Below, piece by piece: positions 7,629 to 22,534 of a stretch of DNA of 64,000 nucleotides (its first letter is position 1; each line of letters opens with the position of its first letter). Source of the stretch: an uncultured Acidobacteriota bacterium (GTDB lineage: Bacteria; Acidobacteriota; Vicinamibacteria; Fen-336). The position numbers were made by a program, and so were the translations under genes. The DNA is taken from positions 41,686 through 105,685 of the forward strand of contig CAZLRF010000009.1 of the NCBI GenBank assembly GCA_964561785.1, written 5' to 3'. The notes below the pieces were generated by a model, which searched no databases, was not told where the DNA came from, and saw only the letters and a list, made by a program, of their open reading frames with translations.

Positions 7629-8252
7629 ATGATCGCGATCGCCGACTACGGCATCGGCAACCTCGGCAGCGTCACCAAGGCCTTCCGCCGCGCGGGGGCG
7701 GAGGTCGCGCTCGTGGGCGACGTCGACCGGCTGCGCCTCGCGGACGCGCTCGTCCTGCCCGGGGACGGCGCGTTCGCGGCCACGATGGGCGAGATCGAGG
7801 CGCGCGGGCTCGTCCCCGTGCTGCGGGAGGCGGCCGCGGCGGGGAAGCCTCTCCTCGGCATCTGCATCGGGATGCAGGTTCTCTTCGAGGAGAGCGAGGA
7901 GCACGGCCGCCACCGGGGGCTCGGCCTGCTGCCCGGCCGCGTCGTGCGCTTCGACGGCGAGCTTCCGGTGCCCCACATGGGGTGGAACCGGCTGCGGGCG
8001 CGGCGGGCGCACCCGATCCTCGACCCGGTGCCGGACGGCGCCCACGTCTACTTCGTCCACTCCTACTGGTGCGACGCCGCGGACGACGTGGTGGTCGCGA
8101 CGTCGGACTACGGCCGCGACTTTCCGGCCGTGGTCGCACGCGGCAGCGTCCTCGGCCTGCAGTTCCACCCCGAGAAGAGCCAGGACGTGGGGCAGCGCAT
8201 GGTGGAGGCCTTCGTGCAGATCGTGAGGGCGGCGAGGAGGACGGCGGCATGA
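7629..8252 (+). CDS. hisH: imidazole glycerol phosphate synthase, glutamine amidotransferase subunit
   Basis: GATase1 (LGICIGMQ nucleophile elbow, FHPEKS). Confidence 0.92.
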
Positions 8253-8986
8253 TCGTGGTTCCCGCGATCGACATCCGGAAGGGCCGGGTCGTACGCCTGC
8301 GCCAGGGCCGGGCCGAGGAGGAGACGGTGTACGGCTCGCACCCGGCGGAGGCCGCGCGCCGCTGGGAGGCCGAGGGGGCCGCGCGCCTCCACGTCGTCGA
8401 CCTCGACGCGGCCATCGAGGGGATGAGCCAGACCGACGCGATCGCGGCGGTGGTGCAGGCGGTGCGCATCCCGGTCGAGGTGGGCGGCGGGGTGAGGAGG
8501 CTGGCCGACGCCCGGCAGCTCAGGGACCTCGGCGTCGAGCGCGTGATCTTCGGGACGGCCGCGGTGTCCCGCCCGGAGGAGGTGCAGGCCGCGGTCTCGC
8601 ACTTCCCGGAGGCGGTGGCGGTGGCCATCGACGCCCGCGACGGCCGGGTGGCGGTGGCGGGCTGGAACGAGACGACGGACGTCGACGCGCTCGAGCTCGC
8701 CGCCACCGTCGAGAGCTGGGGCGTGGTGCGGGTCCAGTTCACCGACATCCGGCGCGACGGCACCCTCGTCGGGCCGAACCTCGAGGCGATCGAGGCGCTC
8801 GGCCGCAGGACCGGCCTTCGGGTCACCGCCGCCGGCGGCGTCTCGGACGTGCGGGACCTCGTCCGCCTCGCCGAGCTCGAGCCGTTCGGGGTCGACGAGG
8901 CAATCGTGGGCAAGGCCCTCTACGAGGGGCGGGTGACGCTCGCCGGGGCGCGGCGGGCCCTCGCCGAGGGGGAGGCGACGCGCTGA
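8249..8986 (+). CDS. hisA: 1-(5-phosphoribosyl)-5-[(5-phosphoribosylamino)methylideneamino]imidazole-4-carboxamide isomerase
   Basis: HisA/HisF TIM barrel ([23 protein letters not shown]); ATGA overlap with hisH. Confidence 0.9.
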
Positions 8987-9776
8987 TGCTCGCGAAGCGG
9001 CTCATTCCCTGCCTCGACGTCGACCGCGGCCGCGTGGTGAAGGGCGTGCGCTTCGTGTCCCTGCGCGACGCGGGCGACCCCGTGGAGGCGGCGGTGCGCT
9101 ACGACCTCGAGGGCGCGGACGAGCTGGTCTTCCTCGACATCACCGCCTCCTCCGACGCGCGGCCGATCGTGCTCGACATGGTGCGCCGCGTGGCGGACGC
9201 GGTCTACCTGCCGTTCACCGTGGGCGGAGGCGTGCGCGCGGTGGAGGACGCCGAGGCGCTGCTGCGGGCCGGCGCGGACAAGGTGGCGGTCAACACCGCG
9301 GCGGTCGACGAGCCGGCGCGGCTCGAGGATCTCTCGCGCCGCTTCGGGTCGCAGGCGGTCGTCCTCGCGATCGACGCGCGCTCGACCGGGCGCGGCGGGT
9401 GGGAGGTGTTCGTGCACGGCGGACGCACGCCCACCGGCCGGGACGCCGTCGAGTGGGCGCGGGAGGGGACGGCGCGGGGCGCGGGCGAGATCCTGCTCAC
9501 CAGCATGGACCGGGACGGGACGAAGGACGGCTTCGACGTGGCGCTCGTCCGGGCAGTGGCCGACGCCGTGCGTGTGCCGGTCGTGGCCTCGGGCGGCTGC
9601 GGCAGCGTCGCCCACATGGCCGAGGCCTTCACGCAGGGGCGGGCGAGCGCGGCGCTCGCCGCCTCCGTCTTCCACTTCGGCGAGATCCGGATCCCCGAGG
9701 CGAAGAGGGAGCTGCTCGCCCTCGGCGTGCCGGTGCGGCCCCCGGCGGAGCCGCCAGCGGCGGCGGGAGGCCGGTG

Positions 9777-9777
<1 letters not shown>
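8986..9777 (+). CDS. hisF: imidazole glycerol phosphate synthase, cyclase subunit
   Basis: HisF motifs ([30 protein letters not shown]). Confidence 0.92.
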
Positions 9778-14197
<4,420 letters not shown>

Positions 14198-14201
<4 letters not shown>

Positions 14202-14851
14202 GCCGGCTCTTCGTGAAGGTCTGCGGTATCACGTCGCCCGAGGACGCGGCGCTCGCGGCCGAGGCGGGGGCCGACGCGGTCGGCCTCGTCTTCTGGCGGA
14301 AGAGCCCGCGGGCGGTGACCGTCGAGGCGGCCCGGAGGATCGGCGAGGCCCTGCCGCCCTCGGTGGTGCGCGTCGGCGTCTTCGTGGACGCCTCCCGGGA
14401 CGAGATGGCGCGGGCGGCCGACGCCGCCTCTCTCGACCTGCTGCAGCTGCACGGGGACGAGCCCCCCGAGGCGTGCGAGGGCCTGCCGCGCCGGGCGTGG
14501 AAGGCGCTGCGCGTGGGCGAGGGCTTCGCGCCGGAGGACGCGCGGCGCTACGAGGGCCGCGTGGCGGGGATCCTCCTCGACACCGGCGGCGGCGAGCCCG
14601 GGGGCACCGGCCGCGCGTTCGACTGGTCGCTCGCACGGGGCGTGCGCGAGCGGGCCCGCTTCCTCGTGCTCGCGGGCGGCCTCGGGCCCGACAACGTCCG
14701 CAACGCCGTCGCGGCCGTGCGTCCCGACGGCGTCGACGCGTCGAGCCGCCTGGAGAGAGAGCCGGGGCGGAAGGACCCCGCGAAGGTGAGGGCGTTCGTG
14801 CAGGCGGCGCGCGCCGCGACGGCGGACCCCGGGGAGGACGAGGAGGCATGA
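14198..14851 (+). CDS. trpF: phosphoribosylanthranilate isomerase
   Basis: PRAI ([33 protein letters not shown]); GTGA overlap. Confidence 0.88.
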
Positions 14852-16155
14852 GCACGGCACGGCACGCGGGCGTCTGGCCCGACGCAGCGGGGCGCTTCGG
14901 GCCCTACGGCGGGCGCTACGTCCCCGAGACCCTCATGGAGCCGCTGCGCGAGCTCGAGGAGGCGTATGCCTCCGCCCGCCGCGACCCCGGCTTCGAGGCG
15001 GAGCTGCAGAGGCTGCTGCGCGACTACGTGGGCCGGCCGACGCCTCTCGGCCTCGCCGCGCGGCTGTCGGAGCGCCTCGGCTGCCGGGTCTGGATGAAGC
15101 GCGAGGACCTCTGCCACACCGGCGCTCACAAGATCAACAACGCGCTCGGCCAGGCGCTCCTCGTGAAGCGGATGGGAAAGACGCGGGTCGTGGCCGAGAC
15201 CGGGGCCGGCCAGCACGGCGTCGCCACCGCCACCGTCTGCGCGCTGCTCGGGCTCGAGTGCGTCGTCTACATGGGCACCGAGGACATCGCCCGCCAGGCC
15301 CCGAACGTGAAGCGCATGCGGCTCCTCGGGGCGGAGGTGCGCGGCGTCGACTCGGGCACGCGCACGCTGAAGGACGCGATCAACGAGGCGATGCGCGACT
15401 GGGTCACGAACGTGCGCACGACCCACTACCTCCTCGGCTCCGTCCTCGGCTCGCACCCGTACCCGGCCATGGTGCGGGACTTCCAGGCGGTGATCGGCCG
15501 CGAGGCCCGCGCGCAGGTCCTCGAGGCGGACGGCCGTCTGCCCGACCTGCTGGTCGCCTGCGTGGGCGGCGGCTCGAACGCGATCGGCCTCTTCTTCGCC
15601 TTCCTCGAGGACGGGGGCGTGCGGATGGTGGGGGTCGAGGCGGGCGGGCGCGGGACGCGGCCCGGCGAGCACGCCGCGCGCTTCCTCGCCGAAGACGGAT
15701 CCGGGGCCGGCGTGGGCGTTCTCCAGGGCACCCGGACGTACCTCCTGCAGGACGCGGCCGGCAACGTGCTCGCGACCCACTCGGTCTCGGCCGGCCTCGA
15801 CTACCCGGCGGTGGGCCCCGAGCACGCGCTGCTGCACGACGAGGGTCGGGTCGAGTACGCCGCGGCGAGCGACGAGGAGGCCCTCGCCGCCTTCCACCTC
15901 CTGGGCGAGACCGAGGGCGTGCTGCCCGCCCTCGAGTCGGCTCACGCGGTGGCCTGGCTCGTCCGCGAGGCCAAGTCCCTCGCCGGCCGGACGGTCGTCC
16001 TCAACCTCAGCGGGAGAGGCGACAAAGATCTGGGGATACTCGAGCTCGAAGCCAAGCGACGCCACGGCAATCCAGGGGGGTCTGGGGGGATGGAGTCCCC
16101 CCAGAACAAGGAAGCCGGCACCGGCCTGGGCTTCGATGGTCGCAAGTCCCGATGA
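14848..16155 (+). CDS. trpB: tryptophan synthase beta chain, with ~30-aa low-complexity C-terminal extension
   Basis: PLP-dependent TrpB ([30 protein letters not shown]) followed by a Gly/Pro-rich tail ([14 protein letters not shown]...). ATGA overlap with trpF. Confidence 0.9.
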
Positions 16156-16200
16156 TCTTCGCTCACCCCACCCGGTGCACGGCTGCTTCGGAGGACTGAG

Positions 16201-16629
16201 ATGAAGCGCACGAACGTCAAGGGGAACAGCCCCTACGAGCCGATCGTCGGCTACTCGCGGGCGGTGCGCGTCGGGGCGCACGTGGTCGTGGCCGGCACCA
16301 CCGCCACCGGCGAGGACGGGAAGATCGTGGGCAGGGGCGACGCCTACGCCCAGGCCGTGCAGTGCTTCCGCAACATCGAGAGGGCCCTGCACGAGGCGGG
16401 GGCCAACTTCCGCGACGTGGTGCGCACGCGCATGTACGTGACCGACATCTCGCGCTGGGAGGCGGTGGGGCGCGCCCACGGCCAGATCTTCCGCGACATC
16501 CGGCCCGCGGCCACGATGGTGGAGGTGAGCCGCCTCGTGGACCCCGACATGCTGGTCGAGATCGAGGTCGAGGCGGTGGTGGGGGAGGACACGACGCAGC
16601 GCCTGCCGAAGAAGGGAGTGGGCCGGTGA
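16201..16629 (+). CDS. ridA: RidA/YjgF/TdcF-family reactive-intermediate (enamine/imine) deaminase-like protein
   Basis: 142 aa with the YjgF fold signature ([47 protein letters not shown]). Inserted between trpB and trpA. Confidence 0.7.
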
Positions 16630-16657
16630 GGGTCTCGACGCGGGAGGCCCGCTAGCG

Positions 16658-17434
16658 ATGGGCCGCATCGGGGCGCGCTTCGCGCGGAGGAGGGCCGAGG
16701 GGAAGCCGGCCTTCGTGGCGTTCCTGACCGCCGGCGACCCCTCGCTCGACGGCACGGTCGAGGCCGCGGTCGCCCTCGACGCGGCGGGCGCCGACGTCCT
16801 CGAGCTCGGGGTGCCGTTCTCCGACCCGCTGGCCGACGGGCCGGTCATCCAGCGCTCGAGCGAGCGGGCCCTCGCACGCGGCGTCACCCTCGAGGGCGTC
16901 CTCGGCGCGGTGCGGCGGATCCGCGAGCGGAGCGAGCTGCCGCTGCTGCTGTTCAGCTACGTGAACCCGCTCCTGCAGTACGGCCTCGAGCGCCTGGCCC
17001 GGGACGCGAAGGCGGCGGGAGCGGACGGGGCGCTGGTGACGGACCTCCCGCCGGAGGAGGCCGGGGAGTGGATCCCCGCCGCGCGCGCGGCGGACCTCGA
17101 CACGGTCTTCCTCGCCTCGCCCACGAGCCCGCCGGAGCGGCTGCGCCTCGTCGCGGAGGCGAGCCGCGGGTTCGTCTACGCGATCAGCCGGACGGGCGTG
17201 ACGGGGGAGCGCCAGGCGCTCTCGGCCGACGCCCGGCCGCTCGTCGAGCGGCTGCGGGCGCTCACGGACGTGCCGGTCGCGCTGGGCTTCGGCATCGGGA
17301 CCCCGGAGCAGGTGCGCGAGGCGGCGGCGGTGGCGGACGGGGTCGTGGTCGGGAGCGCGCTCGTGCGCTTCCTGGAGGAGCACCCGGAGGGGGACCTCGG
17401 GGCTCGGGTGAGATGGCTGACGAGCACGACATAG
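16658..17434 (+). CDS. trpA: tryptophan synthase alpha chain
   Basis: TrpA TIM barrel (FVAFLTAGDP, LELGVPFSDPLADGPVIQ, GFGIGT). Confidence 0.9.
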   Translation: MGRIGARFARRRAEGKPAFVAFLTAGDPSLDGTVEAAVALDAAGADVLELGVPFSDPLADGPVIQRSSERALARGVTLEGVLGAVRRIRERSELPLLLFSYVNPLLQYGLERLARDAKAAGADGALVTDLPPEEAGEWIPAARAADLDTVFLASPTSPPERLRLVAEASRGFVYAISRTGVTGERQALSADARPLVERLRALTDVPVALGFGIGTPEQVREAAAVADGVVVGSALVRFLEEHPEGDLGARVRWLTSTT

Positions 17435-17859
17435 GCGGGAAGACGGACCGGCCGCCGAAGATCCCCGCGCGGCCCGCGCCCCCGGGCGCCACGGCCGCGG
17501 AGGCGGTCCGCCCCGAAGAGGGAGCGGCCTCCCGCGGTGCGGCCCAGGTGGGCGAGCTGCGCCGGCGGATCGACCAGATCGACGATCAGCTCATGAAGCT
17601 GCTGAACGCGCGCTCGGCGTGCGCGGTGGAGATCGGGCGGATCAAGCGCCGGATCGGGATGGCGGTCTACCAGCCCGAGCGGGAGAAGTGGATCCTCGAA
17701 CGAGCCGAGCGCAACAACCCCGGCCCGCTCGACGCGAGCGCGGTGCGGCGGGTGTTCGAGCGCGTGATCGACGAGAGCCGTCGCCTCGAGCGCCTGGCCG
17801 GCGAGGCCGAGGCGCGCGGCGCGGCGGACGCGGCGGCGGAGCCCCCGGGCGAGCGGTAG
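17413..17859 (+). CDS. aroQ: chorismate mutase (AroQ class) with Pro/Ala-rich N-terminal extension
   Basis: AroQ helix motifs (LRRRIDQIDDQLMKLLNARSACAVEIGRIK, YQPEREKWILER). ATG 17413 overlaps trpA by 22 nt; an internal GTG near 17548 would give a canonical ~100-aa enzyme. Confidence 0.7.
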   Translation: MADEHDIGGKTDRPPKIPARPAPPGATAAEAVRPEEGAASRGAAQVGELRRRIDQIDDQLMKLLNARSACAVEIGRIKRRIGMAVYQPEREKWILERAERNNPGPLDASAVRRVFERVIDESRRLERLAGEAEARGAADAAAEPPGER

Positions 17860-17872
17860 GGAAGGAGACGAG

Positions 17873-18910
17873 GTGTCCATGGTCATCGTGATGGAGCATA
17901 CGGCCAGCGAGGAGAACGTCCAGAGGGTCATCGAGTCGCTGGTCGAGGCGGGCTACGACGTCCACCGCTCGAGCGGCGTCGACTTCACCGTCCTCGGCGC
18001 GGTGGGGGTCCCCACGCGGCCCGTCGACCCGAGGCTCGTCGAGGTCCTGCCCGGCGTGCGCGAGGTCGTCCGCGTCTCCGAGCCCTACAAGCTCGCCGGC
18101 CGCACGTTCAAGCCCGAGGACACGGTGGTCGACGTGGGGGGGGTCGGGGTGGGCGGGCCGGAGGTGATCGTCATGGCCGGACCCTGCTCGGTCGAGGGCC
18201 CGGACCAGGTGGGGGCGGTGGCGCGCTCGGTCGCCGCGTCGGGCGCGCGCGTGCTCCGCGGGGGCGCCTTCAAGCCCCGGACGTCGCCCTACTCCTTCCA
18301 GGGCCACGGCGAAGCGGCGCTCGGGTGGATGCGCGCCGCGGCCGACGCGAACGGCATGGCGGTGGTGAGCGAGGTCATGGACCCCCGGCAGATCGAGATG
18401 ATGATGCGCCACGTCGACTGCCTGCAGGTTGGTGCCCGCAACATGCAGAACTTCGAGCTGCTGAAGGAGCTCGGCCGCGTGCGCAAGCCGGTCCTCCTCA
18501 AGCGCGGCCTCTCCGCGACCATCGAGGAGTGGCTCCTCTCCGCGGAGTACGTGCTCTCCGGGGGGAACGGCCAGGTGATCCTGTGCGAGCGCGGGATCCG
18601 CACCTTCGAGAGCTACACCCGCAACACGCTCGACATCTCCGCGATCCCGGTGGTGAAGAAGCGGAGCCACCTGCCGATCGTGGTCGACCCGAGCCACGGC
18701 ACCGGCCGGCGCGAGAAGGTCATCCCCATGGCCCGGGCCGCGGTCGCGGCGGGCGCCGACGGCCTCCTGATCGAGGTCCACGACAACCCCGAGAAGGCCC
18801 TCTCCGACGGCCCCCAGAGCCTCTACCCCGACCAGTTCGACCGGCTCATGGGGGAGCTGCGGATCATCGCCCCTGTCCTCGGGCGGTCCATTCCCCTCGC
18901 GCGGGGCTGA
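17873..18910 (+). CDS. 3-deoxy-7-phosphoheptulonate (DAHP) synthase, class I-beta, with N-terminal ferredoxin-like regulatory domain
   Basis: KDO8PS-like catalytic core (VMAGPCSVEG, KPRTSPYSFQG, VVDPSHGTG) preceded by a ~70-aa FL/ACT-like domain, as in the Thermotoga-type allosteric enzyme. Strong SD GGAAGGAGA upstream. Confidence 0.85.
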   Translation: MSMVIVMEHTASEENVQRVIESLVEAGYDVHRSSGVDFTVLGAVGVPTRPVDPRLVEVLPGVREVVRVSEPYKLAGRTFKPEDTVVDVGGVGVGGPEVIVMAGPCSVEGPDQVGAVARSVAASGARVLRGGAFKPRTSPYSFQGHGEAALGWMRAAADANGMAVVSEVMDPRQIEMMMRHVDCLQVGARNMQNFELLKELGRVRKPVLLKRGLSATIEEWLLSAEYVLSGGNGQVILCERGIRTFESYTRNTLDISAIPVVKKRSHLPIVVDPSHGTGRREKVIPMARAAVAAGADGLLIEVHDNPEKALSDGPQSLYPDQFDRLMGELRIIAPVLGRSIPLARG

Positions 18911-20881: not shown

Positions 20882-22534
20882 ATGATCGGCCAGACCCTGT
20901 CGCACTACAAGGTGATCGAGGAGCTCGGCCGGGGCGGGATCGGCGTCGTCTACCGGGCGCTCGACACGACGCTCGGGCGGGAGGTCGCCCTCAAGGTCCT
21001 CGGCCCCGCGGCAGGGCGCGACGCCGAGCAGCAGCGCCGGCTCGAGCAGGAGGCGCGGGCGGCGGCCGCGCTCGCCCACCCCGCGGTCGCGGTCGTCTAC
21101 GAGATCGACGAGGCGGAGGGGGTCACGTTCATCGCGATGGAGCTCGTCCGGGGACGCCCCCTCGCCGCCCTCGTCGCCTCGACGCCCCTCGAGCCCGCGC
21201 GCGGGCTCGACCTCGCGATCGAGATCGCCGAGGGTCTCGCAGAGGCCCACGCCCGCGGCGTCGTCCACCGCGACCTCAAGCCGAAGAACGTCATGCTGAC
21301 CGAGTCGGGCCACGCGAAGATCATCGACTTCGGGCTCGCCAAGCTCCTGCGCCCGCGTCCCCCGTTCGAGAGCGGGGCGGACACGCCGGCGTGGGGCGAC
21401 ACCGACCCCGGCCGCATCCTCGGCACCGCCGCCTACATGTCGCCCGAGCAGGTGCGGGGAGCCGACGTCGACGCGCGCAGCGACCTGTTCTCCTTCGGGG
21501 CGCTCCTCTACGAGGTCCTGGCCGGCGAGCCGGCGTTCCGGCGCGAGACCGGGGTCGAGACGCTGCACGCGGTGCTGAAGGAGCCGGCGCCGCGCCTGCG
21601 CGGGGCGGGGCTCGGCGCGGCGGCGCCCGTCGTCGAGCGCGTGCTCGACCGCTGCCTCGCCAAGTCGCCGCAGGACCGCTACCCGTCGGCGGCCGAGCTC
21701 CTCGCGGACCTGCGCGAGGCGCGACGCCGCCTCGAGGCCGCCTCGGACCCCGCGAGGCGGCCCCCGCCCGCGCCTCCCGTCGCCTCGCCCCCGCCCGCCG
21801 TCCTGCGGGCGCTCGTCGTCGACGACGAGGAGCCGGCCCGCCAGATCCTGCGCGAGTACCTCGGCCGGGCCGGGGGGGTCGAGGTGGTCGGGGAGTGCCG
21901 CAACGGCTTCGAGGCGGTCAAGGCGGTGAACGACCTGCGGCCGGACCTCCTGTTCCTCGACGTCCAGATGCCGAAGCTCGACGGCTTCGAGGTCCTCGAG
22001 CTGCTGGGCAGGGACGTCGCCGTGGTGTTCGTCACCGCCTTCGACGAGCACGCGATCCGCGCGTTCGAGGTGAACGCGGTCGACTACATCCTCAAGCCCG
22101 TGTCGCCCGAGCGTGTCGTGGCCGCCCTCGACCGGGCGCGCCGGCGGCTCCTCTCCCGTACGCCCCTGCCGGCGGCCGCGCTCGCCGCCGCCGCCCGGCC
22201 GGCCGGAGAGCCCGTCTCGCGCATCGTCGTCCGCCAGGGGCCGCGCGTCCACGTGATCCCCGCGGAGAAGCTCGACTACGCGGAGGCCCAGGACGACTAC
22301 GTGGCCCTCCACGCGGAGGGCCGCTCGCACCTCAAGCAGCAGACCCTGGCCGACCTCGAGGGCTCGCTCGATCCCCGCCGCTTCGTGCGGATCCACCGCT
22401 CGTACCTGCTCAACCTCGACCGCCTCGCCCGCATCGACTCCGAGGGCGGCGAGCCGAAGGCCGTGGTGCTCGCGGACGGGACGCGGCTGCCCCTGAGCCG
22501 CTCCGGGTACGGCCGGCTGAAGGGGCTGCTGTAG
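20882..22534 (+). CDS. hybrid Hanks-type Ser/Thr protein kinase fused to a LytTR-family response regulator (STK-REC-LytTR)
   Basis: Kinase subdomains (LGRGGIGVVY, VALKVL, HRDLKPKNVML, DFGLAK, GTAAYMSPE); Pro-rich linker; REC (LVVDDEEPARQIL, LLFLDVQMPKLDG, VVFVTAF, YILKP); LytTR (VVRQGPRVHVIPAEKLDYAEAQDDYVALHAEGRSHL...FVRIHRSYLLNLDRL). One continuous 550-aa frame. Confidence 0.8.
   Translation: MIGQTLSHYKVIEELGRGGIGVVYRALDTTLGREVALKVLGPAAGRDAEQQRRLEQEARAAAALAHPAVAVVYEIDEAEGVTFIAMELVRGRPLAALVASTPLEPARGLDLAIEIAEGLAEAHARGVVHRDLKPKNVMLTESGHAKIIDFGLAKLLRPRPPFESGADTPAWGDTDPGRILGTAAYMSPEQVRGADVDARSDLFSFGALLYEVLAGEPAFRRETGVETLHAVLKEPAPRLRGAGLGAAAPVVERVLDRCLAKSPQDRYPSAAELLADLREARRRLEAASDPARRPPPAPPVASPPPAVLRALVVDDEEPARQILREYLGRAGGVEVVGECRNGFEAVKAVNDLRPDLLFLDVQMPKLDGFEVLELLGRDVAVVFVTAFDEHAIRAFEVNAVDYILKPVSPERVVAALDRARRRLLSRTPLPAAALAAAARPAGEPVSRIVVRQGPRVHVIPAEKLDYAEAQDDYVALHAEGRSHLKQQTLADLEGSLDPRRFVRIHRSYLLNLDRLARIDSEGGEPKAVVLADGTRLPLSRSGYGRLKGLL

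Follow-up and report, generated by a model that had tools for sequence, protein, structure and literature searches.

A Rid6 gene between trpB and trpA in a his-trp-aro cluster of an acidobacterial lineage

Introduction

Between the genes for the two subunits of tryptophan synthase, trpB and trpA, an uncultured soil member of the Acidobacteriota carries a gene for a 142-amino-acid protein of the Rid/YjgF fold, which raises the question of what such a protein does at this position. The gene lies in a stretch of 64,000 nucleotides, which is called the window below. A sequence-only reading of the window had put forward, as plausible, a dedicated RidA deaminase that shields tryptophan synthase from 2-aminoacrylate (2AA) and, as a conceivable alternative suggested by the fold of AroH-type chorismate mutase, an enzymatic role in aromatic biosynthesis. 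Here, the protein is placed among the Rid subfamilies, its locus is compared with those of its relatives, and the possible roles are weighed. The observation itself is confirmed, and its interpretation is partly supported, in that family and operon membership hold and the proposed mechanism does not.

Results

A Rid gene within a his-trp-aro cluster

In the list of open reading frames, as annotated with Pfam and NCBIfam, the rid gene lies between trpB (stop at 16155) and trpA (start at 16658), all on the + strand, and the interval 16156-16657 comprises the gene plus both of its spacers. The identification as a Rid/YjgF-fold gene of 142 codons between trpB and trpA is borne out by profile matches for the gene (PF01042, Endoribonuclease L-PSP/Rid, E=2.3e-31) and for its two flanks (TIGR00263 and TIGR00262). 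The features of the locus are as follows.

7629..14851, + strand: hisH, hisA, hisF, hisIE, trpE, a trpG-trpD fusion, trpC and trpF, the upstream part of the same cluster
14848..16155, + strand: trpB, tryptophan synthase beta, TrpB1 type (TIGR00263, 585 bits)
16050..16200, + strand: DNA particular to this genome, ~130-150 nt, between the conserved TrpB C terminus and the rid ATG
16156-16200, + strand: trpB-rid spacer, non-coding proper, 45 nt
16201..16629, + strand: rid6, 142-amino-acid Rid-family PF01042 protein with an ATG start, assigned to the Rv2704-like Rid6 proteins
16630..16657, + strand: rid-trpA spacer, 28 nt
16658..17434, + strand: trpA, tryptophan synthase alpha (TIGR00262, 269 bits)
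17413..17859, + strand: AroQ-type (CM_2) chorismate mutase (Pfam/NCBIfam), with a 22 nt overlap with the end of trpA
17873..18910, + strand: DAHP synthase, type I-beta, with an N-terminal ferredoxin-like domain (Pfam/NCBIfam)

The cluster spans 7629-18910 and consists of 13 co-oriented genes in the order hisH-A-F-IE, trpE-GD-C-F-B, rid, trpA, AroQ chorismate mutase, and DAHP synthase. The first nine genes, hisH to trpB, overlap one another by 1 or 4 nt at each junction, in agreement with the earlier description of an otherwise tightly overlapped operon, and positive gaps occur only on both sides of rid and, with 13 nt, before the DAHP synthase gene. The spacers flanking rid had been given as 46 and 28 nt; the second figure stands, and the first is corrected to 45 nt. 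A scan of the cluster with sigma-70 and intrinsic-terminator consensus sequences detected no sigma-70-like promoter and no credible terminator, and an internal promoter or terminator was rejected as a candidate. As a contiguous and co-oriented gene with no such signal inside the cluster, rid has the features of a component of the trp operon. Similarly, a search of 9-20 kb of the window against Rfam returned no match at E<=1, neither attenuator nor riboswitch, and an RNA element or attenuator controlling the cluster from within this interval was likewise rejected.

The rid gene is a real coding gene under purifying selection. It was judged to be real, and to look expressed, on the basis of a GC3 of 0.986 that matches the neighbouring genes, a GGAGGA Shine-Dalgarno sequence 6 nt upstream of the ATG, and dN/dS values of 0.16-0.39 against nine relatives, similar to the range obtained for TrpA.

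Two further proteins of the region were observed in passing. The trpG and trpD genes are fused to encode a 521-amino-acid protein (window 11830-13395) with GATase and anthranilate phosphoribosyltransferase domains, a fusion that is kept in relatives. Downstream of the cluster, a 550-amino-acid protein (window 20882-22534; also at 12632-14281 in locus L001 and 14214-15869 in locus L003) joins a Ser/Thr protein kinase, a response-regulator receiver, and a LytTR DNA-binding domain, an unusual hybrid of two signalling types in one protein; it adjoins a divergent LytS-like histidine kinase and a LiaF-like membrane protein.

The encoded protein is assigned to the Rid6 subfamily

Niehaus et al. 2015 divide the superfamily, in full Rid/YjgF/YER057c/UK114, into RidA and Rid1-7, of which Rid4-7 are without the arginine and "remain mysterious"; they describe the Arg105 position as variable in Rid5 and Rid6 and S. 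enterica Rid7 as being without imine hydrolase activity, and in their table of genomes M. tuberculosis H37Rv has a single Rid1 and a single Rid6. Rid6 corresponds to the CDD model YjgF_YER057c_UK114_like_6. Arg105 (S. enterica numbering) is reported to be essential for imine hydrolysis, and Rid4-7 are predicted to be inactive. Of the two M. tuberculosis homologues, only Rv3678c has Arg105 (Prosser et al. 2016). Since H37Rv has one Rid1 and one Rid6, and Rid1 keeps the arginine, Rv2704 is taken to be the Rid6 protein.

The match of the window protein to PF01042 has 108.8 bits (cut-off, 27.3) and extends over residues 13-127, which cover positions 6-121 of the 121 in the profile. The profile specific for the RidA subfamily, TIGR00004, scored 70.3 bits, below its cut-off of 106.25. 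The best match among solved structures was M. tuberculosis Rv2704 (3i7t; E=1.2e-33), followed at a distance by a match with E=2e-14. Upon alignment with HMMER to two YabJ/RidA proteins, the RidA residues K-P-A-R-S-C-V-E-V stand opposite R-P-A-A-T-M-V-E-V in the window protein, such that the equivalent of RidA Arg105 is Ala104 (RidA "PARS" as opposed to "PAAT"). This position was further inspected in an alignment of 86 family members, translated from the retrieved loci, and was occupied by Ala in 34, Thr in 34, Ser in 18, and Arg in none. Other residues of the RidA site are retained: the equivalent of Tyr17 is Tyr18 (Tyr in 73 and Phe in 13 of the 86), and Glu120 is kept in 85/86. The placement suggested by the sequence-only reading as a check, by subfamily and by the Arg105 equivalent, thus goes against its own proposal of a dedicated RidA deaminase, with a sub-threshold TIGR00004 score, Ala104 in place of the arginine, and Rv2704 as the nearest protein. 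With Rv2704 nearest and well apart from the other subfamilies, a variable residue other than Arg at the Arg105 position, and a retained Glu, the window protein is, by sequence comparison, assigned as an Rv2704-like Rid6.

In RidA, the substrate carboxylate is clamped by two residues, Arg105 and one that follows it two positions later; the latter is T167 in Arabidopsis RidA and corresponds to Met106 in the window protein. Since this carboxylate clamp is missing, RidA-type hydrolysis of 2-aminoacrylate or iminopropanoate by the window protein appears unlikely. In place of the clamp, the family has a set of residues that are invariant over the 86 members (Glu13, Arg20, Gly25, Gly32, Thr33, Gln51, Arg75, Thr76, Arg77, Trp86, His93, and Pro102). 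Four arginines are invariant (Arg20, Arg75, and Arg77) or near-invariant (Arg101).

A monomer model predicted with AlphaFold (AF2), of moderate confidence (pLDDT 68.5), has the expected order of secondary structure elements and a chorismate-mutase-like beta-alpha-beta-alpha-beta(2) fold. When this model was compared with the PDB by Foldseek, the top 50 matches were all Rid proteins (TM 0.64-0.71), with 3i7t first at 56% identity. By homology, the Rid6 protein would form a trimer with ligand clefts between subunits, to which the conserved residues may contribute.

Rid6-like domains also occur in tandem. Proteins of ~380-420 amino acids (P0121-P0126 and others) contain three such domains, and one protein of 803 amino acids contains six. 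Presumably, such proteins are trimers whose subunits are covalently joined, in the manner known from 3x-RidA. Rid6-like domains in other multidomain proteins are joined to unrelated partners (phosphatase, DUF3291, GNAT twice, Clp_N, Maf, DUF2520, NTP transferase, and amidinotransferase), and domain fusions were rejected as a clue to Rid6 function on account of this heterogeneity.

Linkage to trp genes is restricted to one acidobacterial clade

To compare the locus with those of its relatives, one genome per GTDB species was scanned; 543 relatives were found, and the best 80 were kept. All 85 loci of the comparison were searched with the His, Trp, chorismate mutase, and DAHP synthase proteins of the window. 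The order trpB-rid-trpA was present in 15/15 loci in which the Rid protein is at least 76% identical to that of the window (L001-L014 and L016). Ten of these are species-level genomes, and the names attached are Vicinamibacteria or uncultured Acidobacteriota. The same order from hisH to the DAHP synthase gene occurs with two close homologues from metagenomes, whose contigs measure 295 kb and 212 kb, and the entire his-trp-aro gene order is kept in L001 and L003. Long contigs with the arrangement include CAVUMT010000001.1 (4.7 Mb) and CAVOPG010000001.1. In one long-contig metagenome-assembled genome (L007, 292-8765), trpE, trpGD, trpC, trpF, trpB, and the DAHP synthase gene are each split into several frames, and rid and trpA are intact; the broken frames look like indel errors of long-read assembly and not like pseudogenes.

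Beyond these loci, the linkage disappears: none of the 70 loci with a Rid protein of 60-74% identity has a trp, chorismate mutase, or DAHP synthase gene within ~6 kb. The unlinked loci include other Acidobacteriota, two of them, DATNCQ01 and JBGPBV01, labelled Vicinamibacterales or Vicinamibacteria, and further loci from Gemmatimonadota, Dehalococcoidia, Ktedonobacterales, Planctomycetota, Meiothermus, a cyanobacterium, a betaproteobacterium, and others. The trpB-rid-trpA linkage is therefore restricted to one acidobacterial clade. A search for the same insertion in related genomes, as the sequence-only reading had advised, accordingly bears it out among close relatives and fails to do so outside the clade. 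That reading had also named what would speak against it, namely, clustering of the protein with subfamilies that lack the deaminase residues and no conserved linkage to trp genes elsewhere; the first was found, and the second was found in large part.

In a neighbour-joining tree, the trp-linked rid genes form one nearly exclusive clade in which five unlinked sequences are nested, on an alignment too short for robustness; the tree also disagrees with the organism labels. Among the best 80 of the 543 relatives, each genome gave one locus. Since no genome gave two, the trp-linked gene would be the only close Rid6 copy per genome, which suggests relocation rather than duplication, with the reservation that metagenome-assembled genomes are incomplete and that the best 80 of 543 are covered. 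The substitutions by which the trp-linked clade can be told apart (Ser/Ala, Leu/Phe, Ile/Val, and Trp/Tyr) are conservative, are all found in unlinked orthologues as well, and leave the invariant positions untouched; on these grounds, specialising substitutions in the clade were rejected.

The surroundings of the unlinked orthologues were examined for a shared neighbour. When neighbouring open reading frames were clustered all against all, the best cluster covered 11/70 unlinked loci, and Pfam annotation of 136 flanking open reading frames gave a heterogeneous set led by GGDEF (8), epimerase/DUF1731 (7), SDR (6), and PhzF (4). The 25 commonest flanking Pfam families listed for these loci contain no PLP enzyme and no trp or aro gene. 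A neighbour or theme common to the 70 loci was rejected on the basis of this heterogeneity. Weak flanking associations are local to lineages, with a PhzF-like isomerase at 4/70 and GGDEF at 8/70 unlinked loci, mostly within Gemmatimonadales. Orthologues of 60-74% identity (loci L015-L085) are spread over Acidobacteriota, Gemmatimonadota, Chloroflexota, Planctomycetota, Deinococcota, a cyanobacterium, and a betaproteobacterium, a similarity across phyla that reflects either remarkable conservation or frequent transfer.

The trpB-rid junction and its extra DNA

Among relatives, the end of trpB and the beginning of rid share bases (ATGA in L001; 1 nt in L003), adjoin directly, or are separated by a few to ~100 nt; between rid and trpA, these relatives have ~7-46 nt. 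In the window, ~130 extra bases follow the conserved TrpB C terminus (...DKDLGILE). The last ~30 codons of trpB form a low-complexity tail that has no counterpart in relatives and is read through from the inserted DNA, and the GGAGGA preceding rid falls inside the extra region at 16050-16200. The extra DNA contains a perfect hairpin at 16081-16105 with a 10-bp stem and a 5-nt loop (TCTGGGGGGA-TGGAG-TCCCCCCAGA); its overall fold is not unusual (z=-1.2). No second copy was detected in the window or in the loci, and a repeat or mobile element was rejected on the basis of this uniqueness and the fold score.

Given the overlapping or abutting genes of the relatives and the ~130 extra bases of the window, the 45-nt trpB-rid spacer is peculiar to this genome. 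The notion that rid has spacers of its own is thus correct for the window and fails as a general trait of the arrangement. Judging from the junctions compared, the ancestral state of the insertion looks to have been one in which rid was translationally coupled to trpB.

Discussion

We consider it somewhat probable that the protein performs a general Rid6 function, not specific to tryptophan, and is co-expressed with amino acid biosynthesis. The gene would be an ordinary Rid6 orthologue from the Rv2704-like branch of the Rid/YjgF superfamily, without the arginine that clamps the substrate carboxylate and with a set of its own (Glu13, Arg20, Arg75, Arg77, Trp86, His93, a near-invariant Tyr/Phe18, and Glu120). 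Because of the missing arginine and this set, the protein would most likely bind or convert a small metabolite, and this would not be 2-aminoacrylate handled in the manner of RidA. The move to a site between trpB and trpA would have taken place in an ancestor of one Vicinamibacteria lineage and would have involved the single close copy found in the genome; the gene would now be transcribed with the his-trp-aro cluster and translated from its own ribosome-binding site, or in relatives coupled to trpB. Its job would probably be a general housekeeping one that gains from co-production with amino acid biosynthetic enzymes, rather than a step in tryptophan synthesis.

General housekeeping is the default reading of the role of Rid6, and two sets of observations weigh against it. 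One is the site itself, which lies exactly between the genes for two subunits of one enzyme, has been kept over a dS of ~0.3-0.7, and in relatives includes the ATGA overlap; this position and retention exceed what a random landing site requires. The other is that the Rid family does associate with PLP enzymes, and a Rid5/6-like protein from Yersinia aided growth when co-expressed with a PLP aminotransferase.

These same observations lend themselves to a second explanation, possible though on balance unlikely, in which the Rid6 trimer is a non-canonical partner of tryptophan synthase that removes or sequesters a reactive by-product of the beta subunit (aminoacrylate/iminopyruvate or an indole-derived adduct) by way of Arg20, Arg75, Arg77, His93, and Glu120. 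The exact insertion between trpB and trpA, the coupling to trpB in relatives, the retention in 15/15 loci, and the purifying selection on rid are all consistent with such a partnership. The chemistry of TrpB proceeds through aminoacrylate, and variants of tryptophan synthase are inactivated by serine-derived 2AA. RidA, Rid1, and Rid2 genes cluster with other 2AA-forming PLP enzymes including tryptophanase, and Y. pestis Y3550 raised growth upon co-expression with a PLP aromatic aminotransferase. From the alignment, the four invariant or near-invariant arginines (20, 75, 77, and 101) might replace Arg105. However, all 70 orthologous loci outside the clade are unlinked and have no PLP enzyme among their commonest flanking families, the trp-linked copies carry no specialising substitutions, and both arginine-less Rid proteins that were reported as tested were without imine/2AA deaminase activity. 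The more specific proposal, that Rid6 would serve as an accessory enzyme of Vicinamibacteria tryptophan synthase and quench reactive species released by TrpB through an Arg105-independent site (Arg20/Arg75/Arg77/His93/Glu120), is regarded as doubtful. If true, Rid6 would be the first of the "mysterious" Rid4-7 subfamilies to have a biochemical function assigned.

A regulatory or RNA-directed role is improbable. In one version, tryptophan, indole, or some other metabolite of the pathway would be the ligand of the trimer, and binding would tune expression or the activity of enzymes; in the other, the trimer would cut the polycistronic mRNA as an endoribonuclease of the L-PSP type. Ribonuclease or regulatory roles have been assigned to some Rid-family proteins, the pocket is remodelled and includes the invariant Trp86 and His93 as well as Tyr18, and the empty Rfam search of 9-20 kb leaves the regulation of the cluster unexplained. 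Y3550, in contrast, is without RNase activity, and the surroundings of orthologues elsewhere are not consistently regulatory or trp-related.

There is very little likelihood that tryptophan synthase has in this protein a dedicated 2-aminoacrylate/iminopropanoate deaminase of the canonical RidA type, as first proposed. The Rid fold, the Pfam family, and the retained Tyr18 and Glu120 are compatible with such an enzyme, and the metagenome source labels close homologues "enamine deaminase RidA"; it was nonetheless rejected on the missing Arg105 and the sub-threshold TIGR00004 score, given that Arg105 is reported to be essential, that Rid4-7 are predicted to be inactive, and that inactivity was shown for one Rid7 and one Rid5/6-like protein. 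Where such Rid6 genes have been labelled "enamine deaminase RidA" automatically, the label is probably wrong.

YjgF/Rid proteins and AroH have a common fold. An AroH-like chorismate mutase, or another chorismate-using enzyme on that fold, is highly improbable in spite of the operon shared with aromatic-pathway genes, and was rejected, as the protein matches PF01042 only and not CM_1 (PF07736) at E<=10, no chorismate mutase occurs among 47 PDB sequence matches or the top 50 Foldseek matches, an AroQ gene already follows trpA, and the 70 other loci are without aromatic-pathway neighbours.

Returning to the general Rid6 function favoured above, the trp linkage is best described as a lineage-specific curiosity of gene order and not as a new system, and as a useful lead to the function of Rid6. 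Rid4-7 are widespread without known activity, and the sole conserved operon setting that the comparison found for Rid6 is the trp operon of this acidobacterial lineage. The family is also unusually conserved, with 60-74% identity over at least seven phylum-level groups.

Comparison with known systems

The closest known protein is M. tuberculosis Rv2704 (3i7t), the best match by both sequence and fold, with 56% identity, a small residue at the Arg105 position, and the Tyr and Glu retained; it, too, has no defined function. The two differ in genomic setting, Rv2704 lying away from trp or 2AA-related genes, whereas the window gene lies between trpB and trpA. Proteins of the RidA subfamily (S. enterica RidA, E. 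coli TdcF, and B. subtilis YabJ) share the Pfam family and fold at ~33-37% identity, and their genes often cluster with 2AA-forming PLP enzymes. The window protein differs from them in the Ala that replaces the catalytic Arg105, in its sub-cut-off score, and in the other invariant residues of its pocket. Clustering of Rid genes with tryptophanase and other PLP enzymes is described by Niehaus et al. 2015, the accessible text of which does not have tryptophan synthase among the enzymes that it mentions.

Y. pestis Y3550, a Rid5/6-like protein compared here by description, is similarly an arginine-less Rid co-expressed with a PLP enzyme of aromatic amino acid metabolism; it is reported to have no imine/2AA deaminase activity and no RNase activity and is encoded in an island with a PLP aromatic aminotransferase. 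It differs in its partner enzyme, in the horizontally acquired nature of that island, and in having Phe at position 17. At the level of the operon, the his-trp-aro cluster of the window recalls the aromatic supraoperon of Bacillus, although the composition differs.

A search of the literature on RidA/YjgF in connection with tryptophan synthase, the trp operon, or Vicinamibacteria found no Rid gene within a trp operon. The trpB-rid-trpA arrangement thus appears to be undescribed, in line with the sequence-only reading. Insertions at this position are themselves known: Burkholderia, Flavobacterium, and a Sargasso Sea contig are described as having non-trp genes, of undefined function, at the same point between trpB and trpA in otherwise canonical trp operons. 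The window gene is, in this comparison, an ordinary member of a known subfamily, situated in a known kind of operon variation.
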